64,000 bases of DNA from a virus, in the IMG/VR virus record IMGVR_UViG_3300045988_179014, positions 192,001 to 256,000 of that record, one strand, 5' to 3'. Below are positions 1 to 42,465 of the stretch, in pieces. Below the pieces are notes generated by a model, which was not told the DNA's origin, searched no databases, and saw nothing but the letters and a program-made list of their open reading frames with translations. Numbering within the stretch: the stretch's first letter is position 1; every line of letters starts with the position of its first letter. Made by a program: the position numbers and the translations under genes.

Positions 1-213
1 CTGCTACAATCACTTTTTCTTTGAGTGATTCCGAAAGCGATAGTGGATTATGCTGGGAATCAATGGTCATTATGGGTTCCTATCTTCAACGATGCTTAAA
101 CACCAAAACCTGCGTATTCAGTTTTTGGATGAAAAAGAGAGGGCAGGATTTTCTAACACCCATCCCTCTCTTCACGATTTCATATTACCAAATTTAGTTC
201 ATCACATTTGCAT

Positions 214-816
214 TTACTTCAAGTCGCTATTGCTTCCGAATGCTACAGCACTAACACTGGATTTATGGGTTTGACAAGCAGGAAGACCAAAAACGCCAAA
301 AAAGTTTGTTGATGTGGTGTAAACATCTGCTGAAATTACTCTATAAACATTACCGTTCAAAGAATGTTGAGGAATCGCCCCATTTCCTTCAATTGTCCAT
401 GTACTGGTAACTTGTTTCTTGGCTCCACGTTCCGTTCCTAAAGTCACCACAATATATGGCATTTTTCGTTTCACACCATTGACGACAGCAGTGGAACACG
501 CTTCCGAATTGTACACTTGAGTTTCCGCTGTGCTACCATCAGGTTTCAGTCCATACTGAGTGCGATACTCTCGTACAAAAGCTGATACGGCCTGATTTCC
601 CAAACTACCAGTTGAATTCACTGATTTCACACCAGTTTCAACAGCTGTTTGTGCCATGGAAGCATAAGCACGGTCTGCATTCACTGATTTAGCGGTATCA
701 ACAACAAAACCCATGGTAAGAACAAACAACGGAATAGCCAACAAGAACACCACTAAAACACTGTCACCACGGTCAGAGCGTAATCTAGCTTTCAAACGGT
801 TCATCATTGTTCTCAC
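214..816 (-). CDS. TadE/TadG-like pseudopilin (Flp-pilus assembly family) protein
   Basis: N-terminus R-S-D-R-G-D-S-V-L-V-V-F-L-L-A-I-P-L-F-V-L fits the TadE-like motif (RG..vEfAl..P + hydrophobic helix). Translationally coupled to the upstream paralog (ATGA overlap). Confidence 0.6.
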   Translation of the reverse strand: MRTMMNRLKARLRSDRGDSVLVVFLLAIPLFVLTMGFVVDTAKSVNADRAYASMAQTAVETGVKSVNSTGSLGNQAVSAFVREYRTQYGLKPDGSTAETQVYNSEACSTAVVNGVKRKMPYIVVTLGTERGAKKQVTSTWTIEGNGAIPQHSLNGNVYRVISADVYTTSTNFFGVFGLPACQTHKSSVSAVAFGSNSDLK

Positions 817-1370
817 CTTTTGACAAGACTTGACTGGTCTAATTTTACTTCAGATTCAGCAGAACCCGCTGTGACACTCACATTGTCTTTGCGTACAATG
901 GAGAAAAATGAACCGGCAATACCACCATATTCCCACTGCACTTCACAAGTGACTCGTTGTCCAATGAATGTTGTGACATTAGGAGTGCAATTAACACTTT
1001 TAACAGTTGCATTAACAATCCCATTGGACTCATTCAACCCACGAATAATGTTGCATTCAATAGGGGTGGAATTATTGGTGAAAGCATTACTGGCTATACC
1101 ACCACTCAATCCCGTACAGGCAGTTGCTCTACTTTGTCCATATTTTGCTTCGATTGGTGTTCCCATAGTAGCAGTACCATCCCCACCCATGATTGCAACA
1201 GTACGAGCCCCATCACGAGCAACAGATTGAATTTGTGAACGATTGGTGAGATACAAACTAAAATCAACTGCTGTCACAATAAGCATGAACATTATGGGAA
1301 TTACAAAAACAGCTGACACCAACGAATCACCACGGTCAGACTTCAACCGTTTATAGAGTTTTTTAAACAT
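813..1370 (-). CDS. TadE-like pseudopilin paralog
   Basis: N-terminus K-S-D-R-G-D-S-L-V-S-A-V-F-V-I-P-I-M-F-M-L-I-V-T-A-V-D-F then ...I-Q-S-V-A-R-D-G-A-R: classic TadE signature. Confidence 0.6.
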   Translation of the reverse strand: MFKKLYKRLKSDRGDSLVSAVFVIPIMFMLIVTAVDFSLYLTNRSQIQSVARDGARTVAIMGGDGTATMGTPIEAKYGQSRATACTGLSGGIASNAFTNNSTPIECNIIRGLNESNGIVNATVKSVNCTPNVTTFIGQRVTCEVQWEYGGIAGSFFSIVRKDNVSVTAGSAESEVKLDQSSLVKR

Positions 1371-1430
1371 GAAACACGTCCCTGAAGAATAATCGAATCT
1401 AAAGCAGCAATATCAAGGCACAATAAACAT

Positions 1431-2291
1431 TTATGCAAACTGCCTCAATTGTTCATTCTCGGCACGTAATTTACGAATTTCATCCATATAGTTGACACAT
1501 TGTGAGCATTCATAAATAGCGGGCGGAGTACCCCAACCATTGTTTGCCACTTCAATAATTGACACATAGAATCGACGTTTGGCATCAAGACTCATATGTG
1601 CATCAGCTGTGGAGTTGGGCTCTAAACCAAAAATCATCATACGAAGATAGTCGCTGGATGAAATACACAAACGCTGTGCTCGCCATTTGACGGTTTCTGC
1701 TTCAGGCATTGACATACGTCCTGATAACCGGTTGTTTCGTTTCTCATTCTGAGCTACTAAACGATTGAGTTGAGCATTGATTTCAGCAATACGATTAGCA
1801 TATAGAGCCACCTCGTCTGCATCGTCCTCTTCATCCATCAACACCGCTAATTCCAATTTCGATTGACGTAAGAAAGACTGATTCTTTACAGTATCCTCTA
1901 TCTCTTTCAAAGTTTTTTCAGCAATTTCGCGCCAACCGTTGATGTCTACAGTTCCCAAAGCGCGATTACGGATGAATTGTGACATTGTAATTTTCTCACC
2001 AGCTGCTTTCACCGCTTTTAGTTCTTGGTCCAATGACACACGTTCCTGAGTGGTGACTGTGATGGACACGCGCTGGTCTAAAGGGGCACCACGTCGTTTC
2101 CGGTTGGAGACTCGCGGTTTCCAGTCTTTGAATAAATCAATCATCTCATTGTAGCCCAGTTCCTCCAAAACCTTGAGTTTGTCGTCAACTGACATAACTT
2201 CTGTTGCTACTGTATAACGGTTGTTGGCATTTTGGGCTTGATGCTCTTTGAAACGTTTGGCAACATTGATACGATGACTGTTAGAACTCAT
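1431..2291 (-). CDS. MobC-like ribbon-helix-helix relaxosome accessory protein (N-terminal RHH, coiled-coil middle, C-terminal CxxC)
   Basis: Segment RVSITVTTQERVSLDQELKAVKAAGEKITMSQFIRNRALG matches the MobC/RHH consensus (R..v.ft.eE...l...A...g.s.s.fiR..alg). Confidence 0.45.
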   Translation of the reverse strand: MSSNSHRINVAKRFKEHQAQNANNRYTVATEVMSVDDKLKVLEELGYNEMIDLFKDWKPRVSNRKRRGAPLDQRVSITVTTQERVSLDQELKAVKAAGEKITMSQFIRNRALGTVDINGWREIAEKTLKEIEDTVKNQSFLRQSKLELAVLMDEEDDADEVALYANRIAEINAQLNRLVAQNEKRNNRLSGRMSMPEAETVKWRAQRLCISSSDYLRMMIFGLEPNSTADAHMSLDAKRRFYVSIIEVANNGWGTPPAIYECSQCVNYMDEIRKLRAENEQLRQFA

Positions 2292-2331
2292 ATTGCCTCT
2301 CCATTGGGTTTGATGCTAGGGAATGTGTGTT

Positions 2332-3150
2332 TTATGAACTGCATTGTTGCAACCCTTTTTCCAGAGCATTTTTATCATTGTTACTGATTGATACGCCATA
2401 TTTACTGGCGGTATTTACCCACATTTTAGAATACGTACACTGAAAATTCTGATTGGGTGGCATATATTCGCCAGGCCCTTTATCTGATTTGGAACGGTTT
2501 TCAGATGCGGAAACTGCCAATAGCTGAGAAGTATCATTGGCGAACTCTTGTTTCTTCTCCACGGACCAGCTTTGACCCCCATGGGAAGCAGCGTAACCCA
2601 ATGGAATCACATGGTCAATGTCCAAAGAACCAGGTTTATCTATGGTTTTGCCACTGTATGGGTCTATCCATGTTCCTGATAAAGGTTTACATGTGGTTGG
2701 GTCTGTTTTTACATCTTGACCTTGATTCTGTAGCACAGTTTCCCGAGTATTACAGGGGGAACCTATCCAATGTTTCCATTCAGAACGTTTGTACTCAACT
2801 TTCTGAGCGTCTGCAACTGGTAGAGCCTCCAATGCCGCCAAGTTCGCATCTTTACTCCCTTCCTGTGACGATGTGCTAGTTGGATTGCTTCCTGTCCCAG
2901 TGTTAGTGGAATTGTCATCATCCTTCATATTTGAGTCAGGTATCGAAGGTTTTGTTTGACAGTTCCATTCCAGACTGCCAGCACCACAACCCCAAACATT
3001 GTCAGACCAACCACGGAAGAAATCATATAGCCCACGAATTGAATTGATGTTGTTGGCTTTGGCAATACCAAACAACGCACCCACCAAAATGACCAATACA
3101 ATTCCACTGACTATAGCGCCTTTGAATCCTCCACTGTTCTTTTTCGCCAT
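2332..3150 (-). CDS. Membrane-anchored extracellular DUF1524 (His-Me finger/HNH-like) nuclease
   Basis: N-terminal TM helix, Ser/Thr/Asn-rich linker, then DIDHVIPLGYAASHGG...SASENRSKSDKGP, characteristic of the DUF1524 nuclease domain. Confidence 0.55.
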   Translation of the reverse strand: MAKKNSGGFKGAIVSGIVLVILVGALFGIAKANNINSIRGLYDFFRGWSDNVWGCGAGSLEWNCQTKPSIPDSNMKDDDNSTNTGTGSNPTSTSSQEGSKDANLAALEALPVADAQKVEYKRSEWKHWIGSPCNTRETVLQNQGQDVKTDPTTCKPLSGTWIDPYSGKTIDKPGSLDIDHVIPLGYAASHGGQSWSVEKKQEFANDTSQLLAVSASENRSKSDKGPGEYMPPNQNFQCTYSKMWVNTASKYGVSISNNDKNALEKGLQQCSS

Positions 3151-3161
3151 TTCAAGACCTC

Positions 3162-4559
3162 TCAGTCAGTTCCAAAAACTAGGTCACCAACATCTGATGA
3201 AAAATTCATGCCAGATGTGGAAAGTACATCCAAGTTGGTAATTTGACTAAACGCTTGAACACGATGAGTATCTCCAGGCATTTGCTCCAAAAACAGTTGA
3301 GCTTGGTCTCCAGCAGTCCATTGAAGCAGAATCCCTAAATCATCATAACTTTGCTTCAATTTGGAACAGTATTCTCGCAGTGTTTCTTCTGTAGGGGCTT
3401 CAACAACGATTCGGTAAGAACCTTCCACCCATGGGGTTTTATCAGCTGCAAGCATCTCCGACAGCCTGTGAATGTCATCCAACGCTTGGGCCACATCAGC
3501 TGGGAAACTATCAACGGCAGAATCCAAAGAGTTCTGTGCTGCTGAAATGTTTTCCAATTCGTCTTTCTGCTCTTTCTTCTTCTTTTCCAATTCCAGTTTC
3601 ATTTTCTGGTTTGGATGTAATGTGAATCGGGAGTAACAGGTAAATGGAGCGCCTAAACGCGAAGGAAAATACAGGAAGGGAATACCCGCAGGATAATAAA
3701 TGTCTTTGGGGAATTTGGCGAAACTCAAAGTAGCACGATAACCTGACACTTCAACATCATCAAACATCTGAGTAATTTTCAACCAACGGTACTTGTTCTC
3801 AATGGCCGAACCCACTTCAAGGTCAATATCTCCAGGGCCAATCCGGTTTTCGTGGTCAACATCAAGATATGGTGCAGGCATGGCAGGGTAGAATTGCCGT
3901 TTTATTAACAGTAGAATTTCTTCGGATGTGACTCGTTGTGCTTTGAGATGACCAATTGACAAAATACGGAAAAGCTCTTCTTCCTTTTTCCGTGCATCAT
4001 TTTCTTCTTGTGCTGACACTGCTTCAGTAGGTGTCTGAATTATTGTGTCCATCCATGTTTTGAGGGTTTCCATAGCGCCCTTGAAGCCGCTTTCGAAAAC
4101 ATTCAATCCAGCCATGTTCAAAGCGCCACGTTTACCTAAATTAACGCCCAGGAAAGTCATTTTCTTCATATATTGACGGTTTTTCAGATACATGATTTGC
4201 TCTTCAACGTATCGTTCAAAACCAGGACCTGTTTTCCAATCTTTTGAAACTTCTTTTATCTGTTCAGCCCAGGCGTCAACATCTACTGGTGCTGATGTGA
4301 TAATGAGCTGGCATTCGATTGGTTCTTGTTTTTCTGTCATGAGGTTGTTGAAAGCATTGGAAATTCTCATGGCCAAAGCAACTTTTTGCTCAGATGACAG
4401 AAAATCATAAACATTGTTGCTCAACTGGTAATAAGCATAACTATCAGTTTGACTGAATACAATATTGTCAATTACTGCAACAGCTGAAATACCTAACCTT
4501 TTACGATTGTTGGACGACTTGTTCTTTTTGTTTTTCTCGGTCGTCTTTGTGGTTGCCAT
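3162..4559 (-). CDS. Hypothetical protein, 465 aa (basic N-terminus; no HUH/relaxase or Walker motifs seen)
   Basis: Long ORF, same strand as its neighbours, good coding texture. Confidence 0.4.
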   Translation of the reverse strand: MATTKTTEKNKKNKSSNNRKRLGISAVAVIDNIVFSQTDSYAYYQLSNNVYDFLSSEQKVALAMRISNAFNNLMTEKQEPIECQLIITSAPVDVDAWAEQIKEVSKDWKTGPGFERYVEEQIMYLKNRQYMKKMTFLGVNLGKRGALNMAGLNVFESGFKGAMETLKTWMDTIIQTPTEAVSAQEENDARKKEEELFRILSIGHLKAQRVTSEEILLLIKRQFYPAMPAPYLDVDHENRIGPGDIDLEVGSAIENKYRWLKITQMFDDVEVSGYRATLSFAKFPKDIYYPAGIPFLYFPSRLGAPFTCYSRFTLHPNQKMKLELEKKKKEQKDELENISAAQNSLDSAVDSFPADVAQALDDIHRLSEMLAADKTPWVEGSYRIVVEAPTEETLREYCSKLKQSYDDLGILLQWTAGDQAQLFLEQMPGDTHRVQAFSQITNLDVLSTSGMNFSSDVGDLVFGTD

Positions 4560-4651
4560 TAATTCTCCTTGCAGAATTGCGCGAACATATGCTGTACTCT
4601 ATACGGGTCAATATCAACTTAAGCGCACACCTATAAACATTTGTATACAAC

Positions 4652-4682
4652 AAAAGAGGCAGGTTTAACACCTGCCTCTTTT
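4652..4682. terminator. Rho-independent terminator hairpin (13 bp perfect stem aaaagaggcaggt / acctgcctctttt, 5-nt loop), bidirectional
   Basis: Perfect inverted repeat followed by a T-run on both strands; sits just downstream of the minus-strand gene 4711-5070. Confidence 0.6.
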
Positions 4683-4710
4683 GCCCTTCTCCAGTGGTCA
4701 GTAGGAAAAA

Positions 4711-5070
4711 TCAATCGGAGAAGTTGTTAGGTAGTTCTGCAAAAGATACTCCAGGTACAGTAACAAGATTTGCACTATTCACCATGTTGATGTCTTTAGC
4801 AGCATTCTTAGCAACGCCAGTCAAACCAGAATCCTTGTTACCAAAGATTTCAGAACCAGCGAAGATTAGAACACCAACCACAGCCGCAATACCAACGAAT
4901 GCCAACAATTTCATCCAAGCACGGTCTTTAAGGAAAAAAATAGCAAAGATAGCAACTGCTGCCAAATAGATAGGGGTGAGCCAGCCTTTAAGGACATTGT
5001 TCCACAAGTCAACAAGACCCGCAGCTGGAATCTCAATTGTCATTTGTTGTAAAGTGTTGAAAATTTCCAT
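4711..5070 (-). CDS. Small two-TM membrane protein (possible pilin/VirB2-like)
   Basis: Two hydrophobic helices (IYLAAVAIFAIFFL and LLAFVGIAAVVGVLIFAG); the pilin assignment is speculative. Confidence 0.35.
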   Translation of the reverse strand: MEIFNTLQQMTIEIPAAGLVDLWNNVLKGWLTPIYLAAVAIFAIFFLKDRAWMKLLAFVGIAAVVGVLIFAGSEIFGNKDSGLTGVAKNAAKDINMVNSANLVTVPGVSFAELPNNFSD

Positions 5071-5183
5071 TGTTCCTGCTCCATGTAGAAGGTTTATTTA
5101 AATCAGATGCAACATCTTTTCTAATTGTTGTAAACTCAATTCTGTTTGCAATATCGAAATGATTGCTGTTTAAACAAAACAAT

Positions 5184-6923
5184 TTATCGTGGCGAACTTG
5201 ATGAACTGGGTTTGCTTTCAGATGATGGTTCTGATGATGTTGCTTCCCCTTCTTTGGCTACATAAAATTGTGGAGAGAATTTGGATACCAAGTATTTTCC
5301 ATTTGCTTGTTTAACCAGTGTCATCACATATGTGGATGTGTATTCCAAACGTGCTGCGGAATCTGCTGTTCCCAATGAAGTACGCCAATTTACACGTACA
5401 CTAACTTTGACCATACTTGGGTCATTAGTTGGATATGCTTCATATTTGACTGCATCATTCATGTCCCCAGCAAATGTGTACGTACCATTTAAACCTTTGA
5501 GCAGTTCAACTGGTGGATTAGTGACAACATATTGGTCTAAAGTCGTATGATTAGATGGAGAGGATTTGGCATAACCCTCCAAGAATCCATAAACCACGGA
5601 TTGCAATGATTTGGCCAATGCTTGGTCAGATTCTCCCGTCCCTAATGGAGCTGAAGAGGGAATTTCAGAACTTTGACCCACTTCTGCTGCTGGAACCACT
5701 GTTGGGGAATCCTTGGTGATGGAGAAATTCCCGGACCCAGCATTGTAGTAAACATTCACATTGAAGAATTGCCAACGAGGTTGTGTACCCGCAGGAGTGT
5801 CGCCAGCCGCCAAAGCAGGCTGTACAAGAGCCCCAATGGTGTACCGAGCTGAATAATCAGTCAATGCTTTAGACTCGTACACTGTAGGGCCGTATAGAAT
5901 AGTTTGTTGGAAACCTTTTGCAGCAGTTCTGTTCTCATTGTCCCCGTTACCCATGGTGCCACTGTAGTAATACCCCAATACCTGTTGAGACACAGAATCC
6001 GAATTAACCGTGAGATAAGCCTTCATGAAATCGGTTGCAAATCCACGACCTGACTCCAAAGGAAAGTTAGTCAAACCAGTGGTATCTTTCACTATTTCCT
6101 GTATTTCAGCTGGAGTAACGGAATCTGCTGGGAAGAATGTTTTATAACCACCAAAACCAACAACAAGAAGAATCGCCCCAACAAAAATCGACTGCATTAT
6201 TTTACGGTTTTTCTGAAGATTCTTTCTGGGGTCCAAGTCGTGTTCTTTAATTTTTCGACCACCAAAAGGTTTCAGTTGTTTCTTCTTCTTGTCAATGAAA
6301 ACATTTTGACTATTATCGTCTTTTTCATTCTCATTGGTTGTTTTATTGGAAGCAGTTTTAGATGCACGTTTACCAAACAATTTCTTTTTAGTTGGTTGGG
6401 GTTCTTCCTCTGACAGGTCATCATCCAATGATTCAGATTCCAACATGTCATCATCTTCTGGCAGAACCGTTGAAACTGTGATAGGTTTTTGAGCTTCCCG
6501 AGCACGTCTTTGTTGTCTAGCGAATCGGCTTTGACGTGCTTGTTCAGCAGCTTCCTCTTCTTCCCATTCCAATTGCTCCTCAACAGACATGTCAACAAAA
6601 GTATCGTCTTCAGGCCCATCATAAGAATTAGCAACTGGAGGGCGTTGTGAGGACCATTTCAATCGTTCATATGCCATTCCGCGTTCATCAAAATCATACT
6701 GGTCAACATGAGTAGGGCGCCCTAATGCGATGTCAGGATTTTGTGTATTATTGGATTTATTGTTTGTGGGCATTCCCTGAATAGGAGGTAAACTCGCCTC
6801 ATCATCCATGGACGTTCTTGAGGATGGTTGTACAGGCATTCTGTTACCAGTAGCACGACTCATTGGACTGGTTCGCTGGTTTCTCCCTGGTACATTGTTT
6901 GGAAGTGGCATCAATAGCTCCAA
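5184..6923 (-). CDS. Membrane protein with charged low-complexity N-terminal region, single TM and a large extracytoplasmic domain (TcpC-like conjugation protein?)
   Basis: ~230 aa D/E/K-rich N-terminus, TM IFVGAILLVVGFGGY, C-terminal globular domain. The TcpC-like call rests only on architecture and position next to the ATPase. Confidence 0.35.
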   Translation of the reverse strand: MELLMPLPNNVPGRNQRTSPMSRATGNRMPVQPSSRTSMDDEASLPPIQGMPTNNKSNNTQNPDIALGRPTHVDQYDFDERGMAYERLKWSSQRPPVANSYDGPEDDTFVDMSVEEQLEWEEEEAAEQARQSRFARQQRRAREAQKPITVSTVLPEDDDMLESESLDDDLSEEEPQPTKKKLFGKRASKTASNKTTNENEKDDNSQNVFIDKKKKQLKPFGGRKIKEHDLDPRKNLQKNRKIMQSIFVGAILLVVGFGGYKTFFPADSVTPAEIQEIVKDTTGLTNFPLESGRGFATDFMKAYLTVNSDSVSQQVLGYYYSGTMGNGDNENRTAAKGFQQTILYGPTVYESKALTDYSARYTIGALVQPALAAGDTPAGTQPRWQFFNVNVYYNAGSGNFSITKDSPTVVPAAEVGQSSEIPSSAPLGTGESDQALAKSLQSVVYGFLEGYAKSSPSNHTTLDQYVVTNPPVELLKGLNGTYTFAGDMNDAVKYEAYPTNDPSMVKVSVRVNWRTSLGTADSAARLEYTSTYVMTLVKQANGKYLVSKFSPQFYVAKEGEATSSEPSSESKPSSSSSPR

Positions 6924-6976
6924 TTGCTTGGTTTATTAGGCTAATGGCAATATCAATACCTAATACCAGCAAAACA

Positions 6977-9391
6977 TCACATCAAATCATGCAAATCGGG
7001 CAATGCCTCTTCCTCATCTTCCTGCACTGGAATTGATTTAACAGAATGCGAATCAGGTCGCGTCTGACGTATTTCAGGTTTGTAGTTCGAATCATTGAAC
7101 AATGCTTTAAAACTACTTGTTTCCAATGCTGACCTAGATGTACGTGATGAAGCATTGGTCATATTCTTTGCGGTTTGAGAAGAACGAACAACAGGTAATG
7201 GTTTGTCAACAGGTATTGAAAGAACGTCCCGCATATCCGGGTCTAGCTCATCATCCAACGATTCAAAACCAAACCCGCCATCTTCATCTTCTTCTGACAT
7301 CTGGATTGTGTCATATTCATTCATTGAACTGTTACCAGTATATAATGCCGCCAGAGGATGTTCGCTTTCTTCAGAAGATAACATATTCTGTTGTTCCGGA
7401 CCTGGCAACGTGTTCAATGCTGAATCTGTTTTCTCCAATGAAACAGAAACGGTATCTGACTCATCATGACCAATGGAATCAAATTTTGGTTCATAATAGT
7501 TCGCAATGACTTTATCATCCGGAATCATCCAAACTTTCCGTACCAATGCCCCACCTTCATGATTCCGATATCGTGGGTCATCTGGTGATTTGTTGATGAC
7601 AATAGCTGTAGCGCGATAATTGTTTGTTGAGGTTGGAGCACTCAAATTCATGAAAGCCTGAGTGGGCACAATCCAACGTTCCTCTTCACGTGATTGAACA
7701 GTTTGGTTACGACGATTACGCCAATTGCTTGAAAAGAGGAATGTACGATTGTTGTTGGCTTGACTGTAAACAGTGACCATATGTTTCCCAGAAATTTTGG
7801 ACAGTCTGGTAGCCGAATCCTCTGTCGCTCCGCTGTGAACGATAAAGTTGGAACATGTATCCATGATTCCCAACAAATATGCTTCCCCATTGTGTTCAGC
7901 AGCCGCAATTATTTGTTCAAAAGATTGTGAAGACAAAGTCATGGCAATTTTTGATTCACGAGACTTTTCCAACAATGAGGTAACTGCTGTTGGTGGTACT
8001 GCTTGAAACTCATCAATATATACGTTTACTTGGTTTCTGTCTCCAGCATTTCTTCTTCGTGCGGATACAGCATTGAGGTCAGCGAGGATGAGCGACCCCA
8101 TGTAACGCGAGAAGTCTTTTTCCGAGTCAGCATTCAAGGAGAACAGAATCACATTACCCGGCTCTTTCGTCAATTGGTACAAATCAATGGTTCGCGACCC
8201 TTTGGCAGGACGTAACCAACGACCATATTCAGAAGCCATCAATGTGCGCATCTGTCCTTGTAGCGCCCCAAGCTGGCGAGTCAAATCATCAGTACGGTTA
8301 CGAGTTTTCAAAGCAAGATATTCAGCATCTTCTTGAATGTCCGTCCCCTCACATGCTCCTGCCAATTCATCCAAGTTCCCATTGACAGCAGAAGCAATTT
8401 GACAGATGTGTCCATGGTTCCAGTCAATTGATTTGGTTTTGGAACGGTCAGCCAGTCTTAACATGGAAAAAAGAATCTGAAGAATCTGTCTCATATAGCT
8501 TTTGTAGACAGCTGCGGCATTGTCATATTCACGCATGCCCAAAACCATGTCAGCTTTACCAGCACCCCCACTAATCAAAGGGTCATATGTTGCTTGACCT
8601 GGCGATTTAGGAACATCATAACTACCAGGTTCACCATTGACGAAATGATAAAAATTGCATCCATACTCATGAGCCCAAGCAGCAGTTTTGGAAGCCAACT
8701 CAGGAGACCGTTTGAAATCCACAATCACCACTGGCATTTGATTTTTGATGTCATTCAAAATCATTGACAACATGGTAATTGTTTTTCCTGAACCAGCTGA
8801 CCCACTGATAAGAGTTTGTTTCACTGCTTCGGACATATAACGGTAAACGACAGTATCGTTGTCTTCATTCAGTCCTAATGGAGCTTTCTCCTCACTGGCA
8901 AAACTGCCATCCTTCAATTTTTGAATATTCTTGTTACGTTTGAACAATTCAAAAGGTGTTCTGCGATACCGGAAATTATACAACCAACTTCCCTGCAATT
9001 TGAGTTTGTGAGGATTGTTTTTTATCTGTTGAACTTGTACAAAACTGAGAACAAAACCAAATGGACCTGCCAACATGAGATTCACAAGCAACATGGCTGG
9101 AATCATTTCTGTCCAAGTTTCCATAATAGTGGATAGATTATTGAATACTGACAGAAAACGATTCAAGGCATTGGTAGAGGCCCAGACAATCGCCAATACA
9201 ATTTCATATATGAGGATGATTGTAGTGATAACTGATAACTTTTGACGCCCCCACCGTAGCAACAAATAAAAACTGTAACCTACTACAACAGCTGGTAAAA
9301 AAATGATACCAAGCAGGACTAGCAAACCCCATTCGTTGCCGTCCCCGTCCTTGTCATCTTTTTTCTCTTGCTCTGGCCCCAAAAGTAACAC
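6977..9391 (-). CDS. Membrane-anchored P-loop ATPase, FtsK/TcpA or VirD4/TraG-like type IV coupling protein
   Basis: Three N-terminal TM helices, Walker A SGSAGSGKT, Walker B VYIDEFQ, acidic low-complexity C-terminal tail. Confidence 0.55.
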   Translation of the reverse strand: MLLLGPEQEKKDDKDGDGNEWGLLVLLGIIFLPAVVVGYSFYLLLRWGRQKLSVITTIILIYEIVLAIVWASTNALNRFLSVFNNLSTIMETWTEMIPAMLLVNLMLAGPFGFVLSFVQVQQIKNNPHKLKLQGSWLYNFRYRRTPFELFKRNKNIQKLKDGSFASEEKAPLGLNEDNDTVVYRYMSEAVKQTLISGSAGSGKTITMLSMILNDIKNQMPVVIVDFKRSPELASKTAAWAHEYGCNFYHFVNGEPGSYDVPKSPGQATYDPLISGGAGKADMVLGMREYDNAAAVYKSYMRQILQILFSMLRLADRSKTKSIDWNHGHICQIASAVNGNLDELAGACEGTDIQEDAEYLALKTRNRTDDLTRQLGALQGQMRTLMASEYGRWLRPAKGSRTIDLYQLTKEPGNVILFSLNADSEKDFSRYMGSLILADLNAVSARRRNAGDRNQVNVYIDEFQAVPPTAVTSLLEKSRESKIAMTLSSQSFEQIIAAAEHNGEAYLLGIMDTCSNFIVHSGATEDSATRLSKISGKHMVTVYSQANNNRTFLFSSNWRNRRNQTVQSREEERWIVPTQAFMNLSAPTSTNNYRATAIVINKSPDDPRYRNHEGGALVRKVWMIPDDKVIANYYEPKFDSIGHDESDTVSVSLEKTDSALNTLPGPEQQNMLSSEESEHPLAALYTGNSSMNEYDTIQMSEEDEDGGFGFESLDDELDPDMRDVLSIPVDKPLPVVRSSQTAKNMTNASSRTSRSALETSSFKALFNDSNYKPEIRQTRPDSHSVKSIPVQEDEEEALPDLHDLM

Positions 9392-9410
9392 TATCGTTTC
9401 CTCCGTTGTT

Positions 9411-11027
9411 TCATTCCTGGTCAGTTTCCATTACACCAAGAGGGTCAAAATTAAACTTCTCAACCAGTGCAGCATACAAAGGGGTTTCTTGAACAGGAAT
9501 GATGGATGGTACCAAGAATGCTTTGTCCACCTCGATTTTCTCGTCTTCACGTGGGTCATGGAAAGCTTGATTCACCACATCATTGATACCAGCCAGCTTG
9601 TATTCAACACGCTGCACCAATTCCTGTACGTGGTCTCCTGGCATGGGAGCAATGGCATGATTCAATTCTGTAAGAACGGTTCGACGTTTTTCATTGAGTA
9701 TGTAACGTTCCTTTTCCAAAGACTCCAAATCAAAGAAACAATCCGTTGAATCATCACGAGTAGCATCCAATTCAGTACTCACTGTGATTGGTTGACCTTC
9801 AATGGTTTGGATACCTTGTTCCAATGCCAAATACTGATAATCGCCCAAAGCTTTGTTGTAACACGACTGAGACGCTGAAACTGCACGTTCCACTGCTTTA
9901 ACTTGAAGTTCCAAATCATCATTTTGTCTCGATATGTCAACAATATTAGTAATTCGTTCATTGGGTACATTCGCTGTTGACAATTGTTTTTCCAAATCAT
10001 GTGTCAAAGTGGTGTCATCCAATGCTCCAGTCATTCCCTCATGTGGATTGGACATGACTTCGTAATCAAATCCACCATCGTCTGAAATGTTGAATCCAGA
10101 CTCATCAGCTTTCTTGGATGGGCAAGAATAGTCCCAGTCATCATCATTTGGAAGGATTGAACTGTTGTTGGTTTTAAGAAGTCTCATATCCAATGCCTCA
10201 ACATTTTCAGGTTTGACTGCATTTTCCGAAATTGCTGGCAACGCTTCTTCATCGTGCTCTGGTAATCCTTCAATATGGACATACCCCATAGTTACCAAAT
10301 GTTTCAATGAACGAAGAACATCCACCCACAAGAAACCATATGCACAAGATTTCTTCCGTAATGTTTTCAATGTTTCTTCATGTTGTGACACATTCAAAAT
10401 CAAAGATTCTGCGCCATTTTGGGGTTTGGTTTCGACCAGTTGTGATAATTTGGCCTCATCCGCAATTCCATCAATGATTTCACTAGCTACTTTCTCATCT
10501 TTGGGGAGTTGCTCAATCAAGCGAAACAAGTTTAAAGGAGACTCTTCCAGAAAATCCATACTGAAGATTATTCTCTTATCCATGCCTCGTAGGAGTAACG
10601 TCTGAACCTGTTTTATATTGTATTGATTAGCTTTTTTGAATGACTGAACTGTATGGTCTCTCAAAACCGAATCTACTACAGGTATGGCAACTGGTATTTG
10701 ATGTAGAATGTTGTTGTATGATGTTAGCGGTTTGTCGGGATTGTAAAGTTGTTTCACTTTGACTGGGGTGTCTTCAGGAAGTGATGACTCTAAGCTTATA
10801 CGTTCATTCAAAGGGGGAGTGGTTTCGGACAAGGATGCGAACATGATGTTTCCATTACTGGCCCAGATTTTCAGTGTTGAGCCATTGTCCAAAGAAACTT
10901 CCAACAAACATTCGTTTTGATGGATGTCACTCAATGAATTCAGAATAACAGATTGCAAATTGAGATTATGAACATCTTTGTTGTTTTTTACGCGCTTACG
11001 TCTAAAAAATCCCATAAAATGGTCCAT
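9411..11027 (-). CDS. Hypothetical protein, 538 aa
   Basis: Long ORF directly upstream of the ATPase gene; no motif recognised. Confidence 0.4.
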   Translation of the reverse strand: MDHFMGFFRRKRVKNNKDVHNLNLQSVILNSLSDIHQNECLLEVSLDNGSTLKIWASNGNIMFASLSETTPPLNERISLESSLPEDTPVKVKQLYNPDKPLTSYNNILHQIPVAIPVVDSVLRDHTVQSFKKANQYNIKQVQTLLLRGMDKRIIFSMDFLEESPLNLFRLIEQLPKDEKVASEIIDGIADEAKLSQLVETKPQNGAESLILNVSQHEETLKTLRKKSCAYGFLWVDVLRSLKHLVTMGYVHIEGLPEHDEEALPAISENAVKPENVEALDMRLLKTNNSSILPNDDDWDYSCPSKKADESGFNISDDGGFDYEVMSNPHEGMTGALDDTTLTHDLEKQLSTANVPNERITNIVDISRQNDDLELQVKAVERAVSASQSCYNKALGDYQYLALEQGIQTIEGQPITVSTELDATRDDSTDCFFDLESLEKERYILNEKRRTVLTELNHAIAPMPGDHVQELVQRVEYKLAGINDVVNQAFHDPREDEKIEVDKAFLVPSIIPVQETPLYAALVEKFNFDPLGVMETDQE

Positions 11028-11102
11028 TCTCTTGGTTAGTTGCCCGGGTAGCTTCTCACTAACCCATTGGTTTCAATATCGCATATGCGCACACCAACGT
11101 CA

Positions 11103-11612
11103 TCAACGATTCATCGCATATTGATACATTTGTTCAAGTAGTGAAACTGTAATTGAATCCTTCAGCTTAGCCATATTCAATAATTCGTTGGCAACCATGT
11201 TACGTTCTCCTATTGACCAGGATTCCAGTACAGCAAAATCCCCTGATAAAGAATAAAACAACCGCGTATCATGTAATGCAACTTCAATTAACGTAATCAC
11301 TCTTTTAGGGTTCTCATACATCAAACGTTCATAATATTCTTTGTAACTAATTGCATGTGGACCATGAACCAACTGAAAATACGGCTTTGTACGAAAAACA
11401 GCTTTGAAAGCAAATTGTTTACTATCTTCTGCTCCTTGAATGATGGGCGCGACGCTATTGAAAACGACTACTTCCTGTACTGGGCCATAACACTCAATAA
11501 ATGTTTTGACATGTGCCCGTTTCTCATATGATGAGTTGATGATGTACTCATTGAATTTTGTGGAATCTGTTATCTCTATTAAATGGATAGCAGAATCAAT
11601 CATAAACTTCAC
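11103..11612 (-). CDS. Hypothetical protein, 169 aa
   Basis: ORF track; an alternative GTG start gives tight spacing to the primase gene. Confidence 0.35.
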   Translation of the reverse strand: MKFMIDSAIHLIEITDSTKFNEYIINSSYEKRAHVKTFIECYGPVQEVVVFNSVAPIIQGAEDSKQFAFKAVFRTKPYFQLVHGPHAISYKEYYERLMYENPKRVITLIEVALHDTRLFYSLSGDFAVLESWSIGERNMVANELLNMAKLKDSITVSLLEQMYQYAMNR

Positions 11613-11616
11613 TTAG

Positions 11617-13449
11617 CTAAATCATGTTGACATGGGACAATTCTTTCTTCTCTTTAGCCAATGCTTGTTCCAGGAAATCAACAGAAGCATTCGGAGACTT
11701 CGCCAAAATATCAAAAACCTGATTACGAACCTCATCCTCCACCCGTTTCCTGTCTTGTTGACGCAAATAATGTCGAACATATTTGAACTGTGTTTTCAAT
11801 GTTGATTCGGTCATGATTTGCGCCAATGGAAACAAATTACCGCCTACCAAAAAATCCATCACCTTGGTAAGCATGAACTGTTCGGGCACGACCACTTGGT
11901 GTTCTGCCATTAAATGCTCCATCTCGTCAACTATAGAACGCAATTCTGACACCAACAATGTTTTTGCTTTAATCAGACTGGGTAGAAAACGCGGTTCCAT
12001 CAATGTCAAAACAATAAGCCGAGCTGAAGCCGAATATATGTTGTTGGTTTTAATATGATGGATAAGTGTTTCCTCATCAACATCTGTAGAGTCGAATTCC
12101 GGGCGTGTTTCTTTCGCCACGTCAGCAGATGGCACATAATGTTTAATTACGGGGGTGGCCTTGTTTACCGCTTCCTGAACTGTGTCGATAGAAGTCAATG
12201 AGTTCAGCGAAACCTGGCGCACAAACTGCTCACGAAGAGGAATGTTAGCAACAGCACGTAGAATCGATGCAGCAGACTCAACATAAGATGACCGTCCTAA
12301 CGGTGTTGACAAATCAAAATTGGCAGCAGTCATGGACAGCACAAACTCCACCAGAGGCACTGCGGAATTTTCAACATATTGTTTCAATTTCTCCGACCCG
12401 TGTGCCATATAGTAATCACAGGGGTCACTGTTGTTCGGGAAAGAAACCACATATGCTTGGTCATGAATGTTGGGAACTGCCTGAAACACTTTGTAAGCTG
12501 CTTCCCGTCCAGCAGCATCCCCATCAAAGCAGAACACTATCCGCCCTTGATTAGTAACTAATCTACGACACAACGCTCCTTGACCTTCTGTGAATGCCGT
12601 GCCTAGAGATGCTACAACATTTGGGATGCCCGATTCCACCAAAGCGACAACATCAAATTGTCCTTCAGCAACATACAAAATTTTGGTTTCATGTGCTGAT
12701 GTTTTAGCTTTGGAGACATTAAACAATGATGAACTTTTATTGTATAAAGGAGTTTCAGGAGAATTTACATATTTCCCCATGCGGTCTGTCTCTTGAAGTT
12801 TACGACCAGAGAATCCGATAGGTTTTCCAGTAATGTCTGTAACAAAGAACATCAATCGTCCCTGCCACAAATCATAGAAAACCCCTTTCTCAGATTTACC
12901 ACACACGCCAGCTTTCAAAATGGTTCCATCACTGTAACCCAATGATTTCAGCTTACGATACAAGGTTTGACGACCTTCAGGTGCATAACCATACAAAAAA
13001 GCGTTTTCATTCAATCCACGACTGCGTATTTCTTCACGAGCAATATGATTGTTAGGAAGTTTACGAAATTCTTTGTAGAAGAAATTGGCTGCATCACGTA
13101 CACAAGAACGAAGTGATTTGTAATCTATATTGTTTTTGTTGTTGCCAATTTCAAGAACTATACCTTTGTCTTCTGCTAGCTTACGTAAAGCTTCAAAAAA
13201 GTCCAGATGCTCATATTTCTCCACAAAAGACAGAATGTCTCCATGCACTCCACAACCGAAACAACGATAATTCTGAAAATGTTCATCCACAGTGAATGAT
13301 GGTGTTTTTTCAGTGTGGAAGGGACACAATCCTTTCCATTTCATACCATGTTGTTTCAGTGAAATACCCGACTGTTGCACATAGTCCACCAAGTTGTATT
13401 GAAGTTTAACTTGGGCCACAACAGCTTTGAAGTTTGTAGTGTTGTTCAT
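11617..13449 (-). CDS. dnaG: DnaG-type DNA primase (CHC2 zinc finger + TOPRIM)
   Basis: CPFHTEKTPSF...YRCFGCGVHGD (CHC2 Zn finger); VAEGQFDVVAL and FDGDAAG (TOPRIM acidic residues). The stop codon is TAG. Confidence 0.8.
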   Translation of the reverse strand: MNNTTNFKAVVAQVKLQYNLVDYVQQSGISLKQHGMKWKGLCPFHTEKTPSFTVDEHFQNYRCFGCGVHGDILSFVEKYEHLDFFEALRKLAEDKGIVLEIGNNKNNIDYKSLRSCVRDAANFFYKEFRKLPNNHIAREEIRSRGLNENAFLYGYAPEGRQTLYRKLKSLGYSDGTILKAGVCGKSEKGVFYDLWQGRLMFFVTDITGKPIGFSGRKLQETDRMGKYVNSPETPLYNKSSSLFNVSKAKTSAHETKILYVAEGQFDVVALVESGIPNVVASLGTAFTEGQGALCRRLVTNQGRIVFCFDGDAAGREAAYKVFQAVPNIHDQAYVVSFPNNSDPCDYYMAHGSEKLKQYVENSAVPLVEFVLSMTAANFDLSTPLGRSSYVESAASILRAVANIPLREQFVRQVSLNSLTSIDTVQEAVNKATPVIKHYVPSADVAKETRPEFDSTDVDEETLIHHIKTNNIYSASARLIVLTLMEPRFLPSLIKAKTLLVSELRSIVDEMEHLMAEHQVVVPEQFMLTKVMDFLVGGNLFPLAQIMTESTLKTQFKYVRHYLRQQDRKRVEDEVRNQVFDILAKSPNASVDFLEQALAKEKKELSHVNMI

Positions 13450-13870: not shown

Positions 13871-14470
13871 CTACATATTGGAAACATTCTGAAGCCAATG
13901 ACAATAGTATTTGTATTCACACAACGAATCCTGTGCATCCATGAGAGCCCGATGCTTCTTCCCTTTCTCATACCCAAGAACACCTGCATTGGATTGAATA
14001 GCCAATGAAAGACTGGTAACATCAATAGAGCGATGTGATAAGTGTTGATAGAATCGTGGTAAATGAAACGACAGGAAGTTACGGTCCAAAACAATGGTGT
14101 TTCCCCCAAAATATACTGTGGCTTTTTCGTCAACCAAATTCTGTAGCCATCTTGTGAATAAAACATCTGCTTTGTGGTTTTTGATTGATGGTTTATGCCA
14201 CAAATCATGCCATAAACCGGATTGATTGTGCATCACCTGTATCATGGGGTCAGCTGTTGCAATGACATGAGATAAATTACTGACCTGTATCAATGTTTCA
14301 CATGGTTGACCAACAACAGTCCCATCCATATTGGTCAGGATAGCCGCTACCTCCAGCAGTTCATTTAACTCAACAGATGTGCCTGAAGTTTCTACATCTA
14401 TCCATGCAATATATTGGTTTTTGTGGATGGAATGAATTTCCCATGGTGATAAAGTGTCATGTGTACCCAT
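13871..14470 (-). CDS. orn: Oligoribonuclease (Orn-like DEDDh 3'-5' exonuclease)
   Basis: IAWIDVETSGT, GNTIVLDRNFL, HRSIDVTSL and HRALMDAQDSLCEYKYY line up with Orn motifs (WIDLEMTGL, GNSIGQDRRFL, HYRYLDVSTL, HQAMDDI..AELAYY). Ends with TAG. Confidence 0.75.
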   Translation of the reverse strand: MGTHDTLSPWEIHSIHKNQYIAWIDVETSGTSVELNELLEVAAILTNMDGTVVGQPCETLIQVSNLSHVIATADPMIQVMHNQSGLWHDLWHKPSIKNHKADVLFTRWLQNLVDEKATVYFGGNTIVLDRNFLSFHLPRFYQHLSHRSIDVTSLSLAIQSNAGVLGYEKGKKHRALMDAQDSLCEYKYYCHWLQNVSNM

Positions 14471-14905: not shown

Positions 14906-16135
14906 TTATCGTTGTGATTTCAAATTTTCAAACCATGGTAGAACACGCTGTTTGATGTATCTTTCTATGTTTCCATGCCCTGGATAAATTTCATAGTTCC
15001 AGCGCAAATAATACCTTTTCACCAATGAATCCTGTATTGACACATTGATGTGCAACTCATCCAAATTTGTAACATATAAATAATACAACCCACGTATACG
15101 ATACGCAGTCGGTATCGAAGAAGCCCATTCCAATGAAGAAGCAACTTTTGTCTCTAGAAGACCAACAGGGGTGTTTGAATCCCTATCACACACTACATTG
15201 TTCAAATCAATCACTTGCCATGGATGTTCGGGATTTACATATTGCTGGTTTACTTTGACCACACGATTTTTCCCTTGTTGGAATTTTGCATAATCATTCA
15301 GAAGTCGCGGTCCCCAAACTGCTTCTTGATATCTGCGAGCTTTTCGTCGCCAATCTACCTCCCCAGCTTCATCATTGTTGAACCTTTTGGGAATACCCTG
15401 AACTTTGATTTGTTCAATTCTATTGAACAGCTGTTTGATACGTTGATTTTTCGGGTAGGCTGTAAAATCGTGTAACGCGAATAGTCCCACGTCAGATGCA
15501 GTAATTGTGTCACAATAAGGGACGAAATTTGTGTCACCGTCCTCCAGTTGTGTTATTGGAACGGTATCCCCAATAGGACCGAAATTAGCATCAATGTCAT
15601 ATTTTTGCTTGAAATGCGGACTTTCTGTCAACGCTTCCACCAACATGGTCGTGGTTCTTCGATATGATTCATGATTACGAACCAAACTGGCATATGTTTC
15701 CTCATCATATGGACACATAGGTTTTCTGTTCAATGGAGACCGTGCCCATAGTAACTCCCAATTGGCCATAGTGCGTTTACCACGTTCCACGACAAGAGAA
15801 TCAGCGACCTTCCATGATTTGCGCGACTCATCCACTAACTCTTGTAAACGTTCAGCATCAGCGCCATCCATACAATCAATCAAATTGTTCTCAAGGATTC
15901 GCTTCTCAATTTTCTTGGAATGGTTCTGGGTAGACTTATCTTCCTTGTGATGCGATTGAATGGTCTTAAAACGATTAGCCATCATAGTCAAAGATGCTTC
16001 TTGGGCTTCAGCTTTCGTATCATAATGGTTTTCTTCAACACCTTGACCATAACGACATTTTTCTGGGGAGGTTGAACAACGGTTCACTTTACCAGTTTCA
16101 GGGTTAACATGAAATTTCTTTGAAGCCATTACCAT
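14906..16135 (-). CDS. Protein with N-terminal HCCH-like module (FHVNPETGKVNRC..EKCRYG..HYDTKAEAQEA); C-terminal domain unknown
   Basis: Shares an N-terminal ~45 aa motif with at least eight other ORFs in this window. Confidence 0.5.
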   Translation of the reverse strand: MVMASKKFHVNPETGKVNRCSTSPEKCRYGQGVEENHYDTKAEAQEASLTMMANRFKTIQSHHKEDKSTQNHSKKIEKRILENNLIDCMDGADAERLQELVDESRKSWKVADSLVVERGKRTMANWELLWARSPLNRKPMCPYDEETYASLVRNHESYRRTTTMLVEALTESPHFKQKYDIDANFGPIGDTVPITQLEDGDTNFVPYCDTITASDVGLFALHDFTAYPKNQRIKQLFNRIEQIKVQGIPKRFNNDEAGEVDWRRKARRYQEAVWGPRLLNDYAKFQQGKNRVVKVNQQYVNPEHPWQVIDLNNVVCDRDSNTPVGLLETKVASSLEWASSIPTAYRIRGLYYLYVTNLDELHINVSIQDSLVKRYYLRWNYEIYPGHGNIERYIKQRVLPWFENLKSQR

Positions 16136-34576: not shown

Positions 34577-34649
34577 GGTGCTTCTGGCGGGAATCGAACC
34601 CACTTACGCGGTTTTAGGGACCACTGCTTGACCATTAAGCTTCAGAAGC
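34577..34649 (-). tRNA. tRNA with anticodon CUA (amber-suppressor-like), 71 nt + CC, atypical C33
   Basis: Minus-strand cloverleaf folded by hand: acceptor GCUUCUG/CAGAAGC, D arm GCUU-AAUGGUC-AAGC, anticodon arm GUGGU-CCCUAAA-ACCGC, 4-nt variable loop, T arm GUGGG-UUCGAUU-CCCGC, discriminator A. The loop reads C-C-[CUA]-A-A. Confidence 0.6.
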
Positions 34650-35482: not shown

Positions 35483-35551
35483 TGGTACTCCTTGTTCAAT
35501 AATGCCACTACTACTATTATATCGATAAGAATCAATATGATTATTAAGGTA

Positions 35552-35758
35552 CTACCATTGCTCTGATTGAGTGATTTTATGATTGAGTCGATGATGCCAT
35601 GTTATGTGAACAGTTCTATTGGCAACCAAAGAACCACATAGAACACAGATTGATAGCACAGGTGATTCTCCGGTTTTAGGATTCAATACTGGTAGCCTCA
35701 CAAATTCTGGAACTGGGAATGATTTGAGACCCCAAGGAGATTGGCTATCTTCATTCAT
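35552..35758 (-). CDS. Small hypothetical protein (68 aa, Cys/His-containing), translationally coupled to pncA
   Basis: 4-nt overlap with the upstream pncA ORF; CVLCGS...HITWHH could bind metal. Confidence 0.3.
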   Translation of the reverse strand: MNEDSQSPWGLKSFPVPEFVRLPVLNPKTGESPVLSICVLCGSLVANRTVHITWHHRLNHKITQSEQW

Positions 35759-36345: not shown

Positions 36346-36346
36346 A

Positions 36347-42406: not shown

Positions 42407-42465
42407 TGAATACTCCTTTAGTTATTTATTGGCTTTTCAACTTTACCATGTTGTTTAATCTTGTG

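Follow-up and report, generated by a model that had tools for sequence, protein, structure and literature searches.

Introduction

Conjugative type IV secretion systems (T4SSs) of monoderm bacteria, such as Tcp of pCW3 and those of Tn916 and ICEBs1 (MPF_FA/FATA), are encoded in one co-directional operon with genes for a coupling protein, a TcpC/VirB8-like protein, a TcpD-like protein, a TcpF/VirB4 homologue, a VirB6-like protein of the CD3337/EF1877 family and a membrane-bound peptidoglycan hydrolase. The VirB4 ATPase domain is regarded as universal and essential in T4SSs, and it is the marker by which conjugative systems are found. Here we analysed 64,000 nucleotides listed as viral in IMG/VR (record IMGVR_UViG_3300045988_179014, positions 192,001 to 256,000; the window), which are part of a 337,400-bp metagenome contig, and we describe in them a block of genes that shares with these systems the coupling protein, the VirB6-like and TcpC scaffold proteins (the TcpD-like one at weak similarity only), the cell-wall hydrolase, the single transcriptional direction and a similar gene order. 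The block differs from them in that its VirB4 homologue lacks the P-loop ATPase half, no relaxase lies nearby, and an invariant surface HNH nuclease and two TadE-like proteins are added; its sequences are only 21-28% identical to those of reference plasmids. In its working the block resembles a monoderm conjugative T4SS, although it lacks the VirB4 ATPase that defines one, and it cannot be classed as a Tad pilus system.

T4SS genes on giant elements of the human microbiome and in phage G have already been reported. Inocles, giant plasmid-like elements of oral Streptococcus (245-368 kb, GC 24-32%), carry VirB4, VirD4, gyrase, exonuclease, NrdH-like and tRNA genes and the marker InoC, a protein of about 454 aa with a Replic_Relax domain (PF13814) (Kiguchi et al. 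2025, PMC12340149). The element studied here, which inhabits the human oral cavity (a near-identical contig of 344,924 bp comes from a human oral sample), shares with them the habitat, a size of roughly 250-370 kb, the absence of cellular marker genes and the VirB4/VirD4 homologues. Compared by description only, it differs in GC content (41% in the window) and in having no PF13814 match among the scanned open reading frames (ORFs) of 84 kb, and Inocles have not been called phage-like, whereas this element has rIIA-like, deoxynucleoside monophosphate (dNMP) kinase, Pnkp and ADP-ribosyltransferase (ART) genes. Both a described Inocle and a Jug phage (GC 27-30%) were rejected as its identity on GC content.

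Hodor conjugative megaplasmids (>300 kb, GC 45-47%) from Bacillota of the human gut are routinely classified as viral and are without TerL; they encode Rep_3 with ParA/ParB/ParM, sortase modules with giant surface proteins, a highly conserved VirB4 and a MOBH relaxase (PMC12934698). In common with the present element they exceed 300 kb, come from the human microbiome, are called viral by pipelines and have VirB4, VirD4, a hard-to-detect VirB6 and Phage_lysozyme2; by description they differ from it in Rep_3/Par, sortase and MOBH relaxase genes, none of which we found in the 84 kb, as well as in habitat and GC content. The cultivated Bacillus megaphage G (499 kb) has TraC-like and TraD-like genes whose products are absent from the virion proteome and whose role is unknown (PMC12484599). 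Phage G is likewise a monoderm host's phage with VirB4-like and coupling-protein-like genes, yet it shows no tblastn similarity to the coupling protein or the VirB4 N-domain of the window, and two genes are reported there against 7-11 conserved here. No account of this T4SS block in huge phages was found in the searched literature, where the lineage itself, its Tad-hybrid sister and its architecture (no VirB4 ATPase, a surface nuclease inside the operon) also appear to be undescribed.

Results

Gene content of the block

We found eight co-directional ORFs on the minus strand at 214-9391, with short gaps between them (Table 1). About 84 kb of the element was read, namely the window and about 10 kb past each end; the stretch past the window start is called L061 (window position = 10808 minus L061 position) and that past the window end, beyond position 64000, L138. 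Transmembrane (TM) topologies were taken from hydropathy. The ORFs named in a preliminary description of this DNA all exist on the minus strand where it placed them, and hidden Markov model (HMM) support was obtained for each of its domain calls (two TadE proteins, a relaxosome-type ribbon-helix-helix (RHH) protein, a surface nuclease, TcpC and a coupling protein). It had overlooked the VirB4/TcpF N-domain ORF, the TcpD-like ORF and the extension of the module past the window start; what it took for the edge of a phage-like region is the boundary of the window, since the block runs on into PhoH2, VirB6-like and lysozyme genes, with rIIA-like and DnaG genes lying on the window side.

The 465-aa ORF matches the conjugal ATPase TcpF (NCBIfam, E 1.1e-17) over profile positions 8-428 of 813 only, and it has neither a Walker A motif nor a TM helix. 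Its 206 homologue clusters include 120 that were listed, all of them of 448-489 aa. In a fold search with its AlphaFold2 model (pLDDT 80, pTM 0.79), the only significant PDB match was TrwK/VirB4 of the R388 T4SS (E 2.5e-11, TM-score about 0.5). Because of the partial TcpF match, the uniform size of the homologues and the TrwK/VirB4 fold, the ORF is identified as a VirB4 N-terminal domain without the ATPase half, and we found no VirB4 ATPase gene nearby in any of more than 40 related loci.

The coupling protein has its catalytic motifs intact. It matches TraG-D_C (E 8.2e-10) and TrwB_AAD_bind (E 4.3e-8), both over the Pfam cutoffs, and NCBIfam SXT_TraD (E 5.7e-21), and it consists of three N-terminal TM helices, a nucleotide-binding domain and an acidic C-terminal tail, with a Walker A (GSGKT, 200-204) and a Walker B (DEFQ, 460-463) that are invariant in 26 homologues. 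It had been called an FtsK/VirD4-like ATPase, of which the VirD4 type holds and the FtsK type does not (FtsK_SpoIIIE only at E 0.086). Many of its homologues reach 1050-1400 aa through an insert of 280-550 aa just past Walker A (window residues ~204-211; P0007, P0027, P0030, P0070, P0060, P0021), and part of these inserts contain LAGLIDADG/Hom_end domains, which indicates inteins at the P-loop in several lineages, placed just behind the lysine-threonine of Walker A; this fits a conserved, needed active site.

Among the channel and scaffold candidates, the TcpC-like protein matches Pfam TcpC (PF12642) with E 9.7e-7 and 29.3 bits against a cutoff of 27, residues 295-546 covering positions 1-230 of the 231 in the profile, and it is composed of a disordered cytoplasmic N-terminus of ~240 aa, a single TM helix at 242-260 and an extracellular TcpC domain. 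The 119-aa ORF reaches NCBIfam TcpD_dom at E 0.021, under the cutoff, has TM helices at 29-47 and 55-73, and is kept in position and sequence (52-68% identity) in most loci of the main clade. Past the window start lies a VirB6-like protein of 1227 aa with 6-7 TM helices, which matches the CD3337/EF1877 mobilome membrane family (NF046089, E 2.3e-16; weak TrbL match, 0.0033) and for which a similarity search returned only two weak actinobacterial matches. The membrane-anchored lysozyme gene follows it directly, and several small membrane proteins are also encoded downstream of TadE-like protein 2. PhoH2 (Pfam PhoH E 8.2e-44, PIN_4 E 4e-14; NCBIfam PhoH2 E 4.9e-94) stands between the TadE-like 2 and VirB6-like genes in this sub-clade, and is missing at that position in the most distant relatives (L016/L096) and in L113 of the sister group described below.

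The RHH protein, which has no TM helix, matches Pfam NikA-like (PF21983, E 7.2e-8, residues 183-232) and NCBIfam MbpA (E 8.8e-6), with a weaker second RHH-like stretch at 94-113 (MobA, E 1e-3), and it probably holds two RHH units. It is the best conserved protein of the block, with 75% identity to the relative L002 against 54% for the coupling protein. The nuclease is a GmrSD_C/DUF1524 HNH protein (E 9.3e-8) with one N-terminal TM helix (12-30); D177-I-D-H180, N205, N218-R219 and six Cys are invariant in seven orthologues.

TadE-like protein 1 matches PF07811 (E 6.6e-9, 36.2 bits against a cutoff of 22.9) and has a pseudopilin-like N-terminus, a TM helix at 17-35, invariant D12, G14, S16-S19, R52 and D53, and an ectodomain with four invariant Cys (C85/C106/C128/C142). 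TadE-like protein 2 has no Pfam match; in the N-terminal 60 residues its family profile aligns with that of the TadE-like 1 family (hhalign probability 96%, E 4.9e-9), it carries an N-terminal SDRGD-x-LV motif, a TM helix at 20-38 and a Cys-containing ectodomain, and orthologues are found in all main-clade loci. The earlier label of a Tad-like module thus applies to these two proteins, which share a TadE/TadF-type N-terminal segment with the Tad (Flp) type IVc pilus, and not to the module, which unlike that pilus has no TadA, TadB/C, TadZ or RcpC in the locus and no Glu at +5 after the conserved Gly. No peptidase A24 match occurred among the scanned ORFs, Flp pilin and the TadV prepilin peptidase not having been specifically searched. 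In some relatives the TadE2 position is enlarged to 580-825 aa (L003 18646-20391; L078, L079, L090); from a Flg_new (Listeria-Bacteroides repeat) domain in the L003 extension, a role as a surface adhesin is suggested for this position. Relatives also encode a VKOR (disulfide-bond-forming) protein near the block (L002 732-1358; L005 3702-4334), and the N-terminal region of the element's VirB6-like protein is Cys-rich; these features, taken with the invariant Cys of the nuclease and of the TadE-like proteins, suggest that the element itself provides for the oxidative folding of its exported parts.

The 538-aa acidic protein is invariably encoded directly upstream of the coupling protein and is poorly conserved, with only eight invariant columns in seven orthologues and no catalytic motif, by which a relaxase was ruled out. 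A degraded TadZ or VirB4 ATPase was ruled out as well (hhalign probability 0.2% against L113 TadZ and VirB4 ATPase). Membership of the 169-aa protein in the module is uncertain: its position is kept in close relatives, the L068/L069 orthologues were found by single-sequence HMM only, and it has no similarity to a 148-aa protein of L113. A scan for promoters and terminators gave counts no higher than chance; the perfect inverted repeat between the TcpD-like and VirB4 N-domain genes is possibly an internal attenuator or terminator hairpin.

Table 1. Features of the block, of its flanks and of the rest of the stretch that was read; positions refer to the window unless L061 or L138 is given.
Feature	Position	Strand or placement	Basis or remark
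PhoH2 start, first ~70 nt, cut at window edge	1..70	-	PIN + PhoH ATPase, 468 aa
TadE-like protein 2	214..816	-	profile-profile match
TadE-like protein 1	813..1370	-	Pfam TadE PF07811
NikA/MbpA-type RHH DNA-binding protein	1431..2291	-	Pfam NikA-like
Membrane-anchored or secreted extracellular HNH nuclease (DUF1524/GmrSD_C)	2332..3150	-	Pfam GmrSD_C
VirB4/TcpF N-domain-only protein, 465 aa	3162..4559	-	NCBIfam TcpF + fold match
Perfect 14-nt inverted repeat, 5-nt loop	4651..4683		gap between TcpD-like and VirB4 N-domain genes
Small 2-TM protein, 119 aa, possibly TcpD/VirB3-like	4711..5070	-	NCBIfam TcpD_dom weak
TcpC/VirB8-like bitopic protein	5184..6923	-	Pfam TcpC
Type IV coupling protein (VirD4/TraD/TrwB family), 804 aa	6977..9391	-	Pfam TraG-D_C, TrwB_AAD_bind
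538-aa acidic protein	9411..11027	-	no family match
169-aa protein between DnaG and 538-aa protein	11103..11612	-	no family match
PhoH2, 468 aa	L061 10738-12144	continues into window 1..70 (-)	PhoH + PIN
Membrane-anchored lysozyme, 537 aa	L061 15961-17574	directly after VirB6-like gene	Phage_lysozyme2 E 1.2e-26, TM
RNase_T/DnaQ-like exonuclease domains, four	13871-14470, 39440-40642, 55120-57084 (-); 60750-61397 (+)		one fused to a YqaJ domain
Separate YqaJ-domain protein	14906-16135	-	
417-aa ORF	23068-24321	-	no family match; weak PDB likeness to 'putative surface anchored protein' repeat domain (4mkm, E 3.8e-4)
tRNA, anticodon CUA (amber suppressor)	34577-34649	-	ARAGORN label tRNA-Pyl; Rfam tRNA 54 bits
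NAD salvage cluster	34703-38507	-	NrtR-like Nudix regulator, nicotinamidase/isochorismatase, nicotinate phosphoribosyltransferase (NAPRT)
Three tandem paralogous ART genes adjoining ADP-ribosylglycohydrolase (ARH)	41052-46064	-	413, 408, 373 aa
RNA-repair set	46179-47966 + 61453-62016	-	T4-like Pnkp (kinase + HAD phosphatase), 2H phosphoesterase, Tpt1/KptA 2'-phosphotransferase
IF3_C protein	L138 8549-8767	past window end	
Adenylosuccinate synthetase	L138 16844-17944	past window end	
R2K ATP-grasp	L138 19870-20648	past window end	

Conservation of the block across giant elements

We compared the block with relatives drawn from IMG/VR, JGI, ENA, Logan and NCBI contigs. In more than 40 loci, whose GC content ranges from 33 to 61%, the order is DnaG, (169 aa), 538 aa, coupling protein, TcpC, TcpD-like, VirB4 N-domain, nuclease, NikA, TadE1, TadE2, PhoH2, VirB6-like and lysozyme, and DnaG and thymidylate-synthase genes are always its neighbours. 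The most distant group (L016/L096, coupling protein 34% identical) keeps the coupling protein, TcpC, a small ORF, the VirB4 N-domain, the nuclease, the VirB6-like protein and the lysozyme as one contiguous run, which defines a core of seven genes that includes the nuclease; this stretch is without NikA, the TadE pair and PhoH2. The block is the conserved syntenic core of a deep clade and not the isolated borrowed module that had been considered as an alternative. Relative to L002, the VirB4 N-domain is 71% identical and DnaG 55%, and high identity, the invariant Walker A/B, HNH and Cys residues and the P-loop inteins indicate a block under purifying selection and not a relic. In relatives with 25-35% GC (L100-L107, L112), only the DnaG-coupling protein-TcpC-TcpD part of the order is kept, and their GC content, the sole feature compared, agrees with that of published Inocle groups.

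No close relative of the coupling protein was found in 185,579 GTDB species genomes, which argues for extrachromosomal, non-cellular carriers. Megablast of window positions 1-12000 returned nothing from phage or plasmid collections. By tblastn, no phage matched the coupling protein at 1e-5, and relaxing the threshold to E 5 brought up just one Salmonella traD record; the VirB4 N-domain matched no phage record at E <= 0.01.

The carrier contigs reach 727-828 kb. One metagenome (JGI Ga0308157) holds five different block-bearing contigs of 475-727 kb (L069, L071, L086, L094, L095), and the 828-kb contig (L003, Ga0540622_0000002) comes from another sample. The largest known phage genome has 735 kb, which these 475-828-kb contigs rival or exceed if they are single genomes. 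One IMG/VR contig (IMGVR_UViG_3300012642_000011, 437,576 bp) carries the block twice, near both ends and in opposite orientation (L011 and L013), an arrangement that resembles either an assembly artefact by inverted duplication or a palindromic concatemer; the sizes reported for some contigs may therefore be too large.

A sister group with Tad and VirB4 ATPase genes

Loci L109, L110, L111, L113 and L115, on contigs of 27-102 kb with about 50% GC, form a sister group, whose block is orthologous gene for gene for the coupling protein, TcpC, TcpD, VirB4 N-domain, nuclease, NikA, TadE1, TadE2 and VirB6 (31-54% identity; VirB4 N-domain 54%, NikA 50%, nuclease 44%, TadE1 44%). It differs from the window clade in that PhoH2 is missing and neither DnaG nor ThyX genes adjoin the block. 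Upstream of the sister block lie genes for TadB, TadA (T2SSE, E 2.8e-39), TadC, TcpE (E 2.4e-11), a VirB4 AAA_10 ATPase (E 8.2e-48), RcpC and a TadZ-like ParA ATPase; the Tad/TcpE/VirB4 ATPase set of L113 occupies 1210-9130. Searches of the window and of the flanks of the huge elements detected none of these additional genes. Because the sister has the same block together with the Tad, TcpE and VirB4 ATPase genes, the window module is, as judged from its sequence relationships, derived by reduction from a Tad-pilus/T4SS hybrid of the monoderm (actinobacterial, split-VirB4) kind, an origin that explains why two TadE-like genes stand in a conjugation operon without pilus assembly genes.

The best reference match of the coupling protein is on a 437-kb Streptomyces anulatus plasmid (NZ_CP109401; 27.6% identity over 394 aa). 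Like the window, this plasmid has the coupling protein, a TcpC-like protein, the VirB4 N-domain and a VirB6-like protein in that order, with further genes before and after the N-domain, and its VirB4 is already split. It differs in that the gene directly after its 525-aa N-domain ORF encodes an 'ATP-binding protein' of 576 aa with a Walker A motif, a slot between the VirB4 N-domain and VirB6 that is taken by the HNH nuclease gene in the window clade.

Gene repertoire of the carrier element

The rest of the stretch bears out the earlier view of a conjugation-type module within a phage-like gene set. The window encodes an rIIA-like protein (phrog_612, E 6.1e-40; 2510 phage records by tblastn, the best from Streptomyces phages) as well as DnaG, GyrB, ThyX, a T4-type dNMP kinase and NT5C, and with the Pnkp/RNA-repair genes, ARTs, nicotinamide adenine dinucleotide (NAD) salvage genes, tRNA, IF3_C and R2K it has the accessory repertoire of jumbo phages, so that the carrier's gene set, by its predicted functions, is jumbo-phage-like. 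The NAD salvage cluster agrees with literature reports of NAD+ systems in jumbo phages. The number of DnaQ-like exonuclease copies in the window is unusually high. Stop codons of 52 minus-strand ORFs are TGA in 29, TAA in 19 and TAG in four, and together with the CUA tRNA the scarcity of TAG may reflect stop-codon recoding elsewhere in the genome. PDB sequence searches with three unassigned ORFs and the NikA-like protein gave nothing useful.

In the ~84 kb we found no capsid, terminase, portal or tail genes by Pfam, PHROGs and PDB sequence searches, and no Rep, ParA or ParB was seen. The relatives are listed in IMG/VR, a listing that is no proof of viral nature. On gene content we lean slightly, as a judgement and not a computed value, towards a virion-forming huge phage over a giant plasmid-like element; the preference is no stronger because no virion genes were found in the ~84 kb, Hodors are mis-called viral, and Inocles and phage G also have T4SS-type genes.

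Discussion

The best explanation of these observations is that the block is a reduced monoderm conjugative T4SS, vertically inherited in giant (about 0.1-0.8 Mb) extrachromosomal elements with jumbo-phage-like genes. As to its function, we tentatively favour contact-dependent transfer of the element's DNA through a channel driven by the coupling protein, to which we give slightly less than an even chance. The membrane-anchored lysozyme would open the peptidoglycan, and the VirB6-like, TcpC/VirB8-like and small 2-TM proteins would form a membrane channel and scaffold with the ATPase-less VirB4 N-domain. The NikA-type RHH protein would mark the DNA, and the coupling protein, presumably a hexamer of VirD4 type and the sole motor encoded in the block, would feed the marked DNA into the channel, either sufficing without a VirB4 ATPase or drawing on genes elsewhere. 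At the outer face, the two TadE-like proteins and the HNH nuclease may serve contact or adhesion and the processing or clearing of extracellular DNA, and the outcome would be contact-dependent passage of element DNA to neighbour cells, alongside or instead of virions. A bolder version, in which the whole clade of huge elements spreads through a T4SS channel by the coupling protein alone and has dispensed with the VirB4 ATPase, with the nuclease, whose gene would have replaced that of the ATPase in the operon, as an integral part, either as 'conjugative phages' or as a lineage that replaces or supplements virions with conjugation, we consider unlikely.

Several findings argue for DNA transfer: six T4SS roles follow conjugative-operon order (VirD4, TcpC/VirB8-like, TcpD-like, VirB4 N-domain, VirB6-like, lysozyme); the relaxosome-type RHH protein is the best conserved; the order recurs with invariant Walker A/B and HNH residues across the related loci; the sister group has the block beside Tad, TcpE and VirB4 ATPase genes, a full transfer-type apparatus; and the closest reference relative is a Streptomyces plasmid of like order. 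Inocles (PMC12340149) and Hodors (PMC12934698), which carry VirB4/VirD4, have likewise been read as conjugative. Other findings weigh against it. Neither a relaxase nor an oriT was identified in the window, where the preliminary description had already reported the lack of a relaxase, in the 10 kb past either end (domain scans of ORFs for the relaxase) or in the relatives' flanks. A homologue of the VirB4 ATPase half of Streptomyces or L113 is absent from the window and 19 related loci. Phmmer searches with the L113 Tad proteins found no TadA/B/C/Z or RcpC in the window or the huge-element loci, which leaves the TadE-like proteins without local polymerisers; a TadA-like gene does occur in L015. 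The rIIA-like, dNMP kinase, Pnkp, ART, NAD salvage, suppressor tRNA, IF3_C and R2K genes are typical neighbours in lytic jumbo phages, where no need for conjugation is expected, and the reading draws on ~84 of the 337 kb.

To each of two other explanations we assign a low probability. The block may be a T4SS-derived envelope complex of a lytic huge-phage infection cycle, which exports proteins such as effectors or exclusion factors or remodels the monoderm envelope, with the nuclease and the TadE-like proteins as exported or surface cargo. Early or middle expression is suggested by its jumbo-phage-like neighbourhood, which is co-directional with replication genes, the loss of the VirB4 ATPase and the lack of a detected relaxase would suit a system that has ceased to be conjugative, and the TraC-like and TraD-like genes of phage G are a precedent outside the virion and without a known role; yet the most conserved gene encodes a relaxosome-type protein, the coupling protein belongs to the DNA-transfer families SXT TraD and TrwB, and no candidate effector or signal was identified. 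Alternatively, the conjugative system may be complete and the locus only one portion of it, the VirB4 ATPase half, TcpE, Tad assembly genes and relaxase lying elsewhere in the 337 kb of a Hodor-like or Inocle-like megaplasmid that was mis-called a phage. The viral classification of Hodors without TerL, the oral habitat, size and VirB4, VirD4, gyrase, exonuclease and NrdH-like genes of Inocles, the absence of capsid, terminase, portal and tail genes from the ~84 kb and the DnaG-coupling protein-TcpC-TcpD order of low-GC relatives are all consistent with this. It has against it the phage-typical rIIA-like, T4-type dNMP kinase, Pnkp/Tpt1, ART, IF3_C and R2K genes, the absence of Rep, ParA and ParB from the stretch read, and a GC content of 41% and a habitat that match neither Inocles (24-32%) nor Hodors (gut, 45-47%), and a VirB4 ATPase retained elsewhere sits poorly with 120 of 120 listed VirB4 N-domain clusters comprising the N-domain only and with none of the related loci having the ATPase nearby.

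Less probable again is DNA uptake or nucleotide scavenging, in which the surface HNH nuclease would cut outside or neighbour DNA and the channel and coupling protein would import it for replication of a very large genome. T4SS-type and Tad-type machines do serve DNA uptake in some bacteria (ComB in Helicobacter, Tad-dependent transformation in Micrococcus), an extracellular nuclease is an invariant core member inside the operon, and the element has many nucleotide-metabolism genes; but known DNA-uptake T4SSs are without a VirD4 coupling protein, an RHH relaxosome-type protein has no role in import, and no ComEC-like channel was seen. We give the least credence, as very improbable, to a role in adhesion only, with the host's Tad pilus assembling the TadE-like proteins and the rest of the block a decaying relic, which two TadE-like genes without their own assembly genes and the full Tad set of the sister lineage might bring to mind. 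Frameshifts or relaxed selection in the T4SS genes would then be expected and the opposite is observed across the clade, where the supposed relic genes are more conserved than DnaG (71% and 75% against 55% to L002) and have retained the catalytic motifs over a GC range of 33-61%, and the L016 type retains the T4SS core without TadE genes.

A T4SS block that keeps only the scaffold domain of VirB4 would escape VirB4-based screens for conjugative systems, and one would have to ask whether transfer can be driven by a coupling protein alone. The sister lineage hints at Tad-pilus-assisted conjugation in monoderm bacteria, and neither this nor a hybrid of Tad and T4SS genes is described in the searched literature. 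The giant elements that carry the block occur commonly in the human mouth, with sizes of up to 0.7-0.8 Mb in other places, and, as Inocles and Hodors do, they blur the line between huge phage and conjugative megaplasmid. If contact-dependent movement is true, estimates of the host range and ecology of huge phages and of gene flow in biofilms would need revision.

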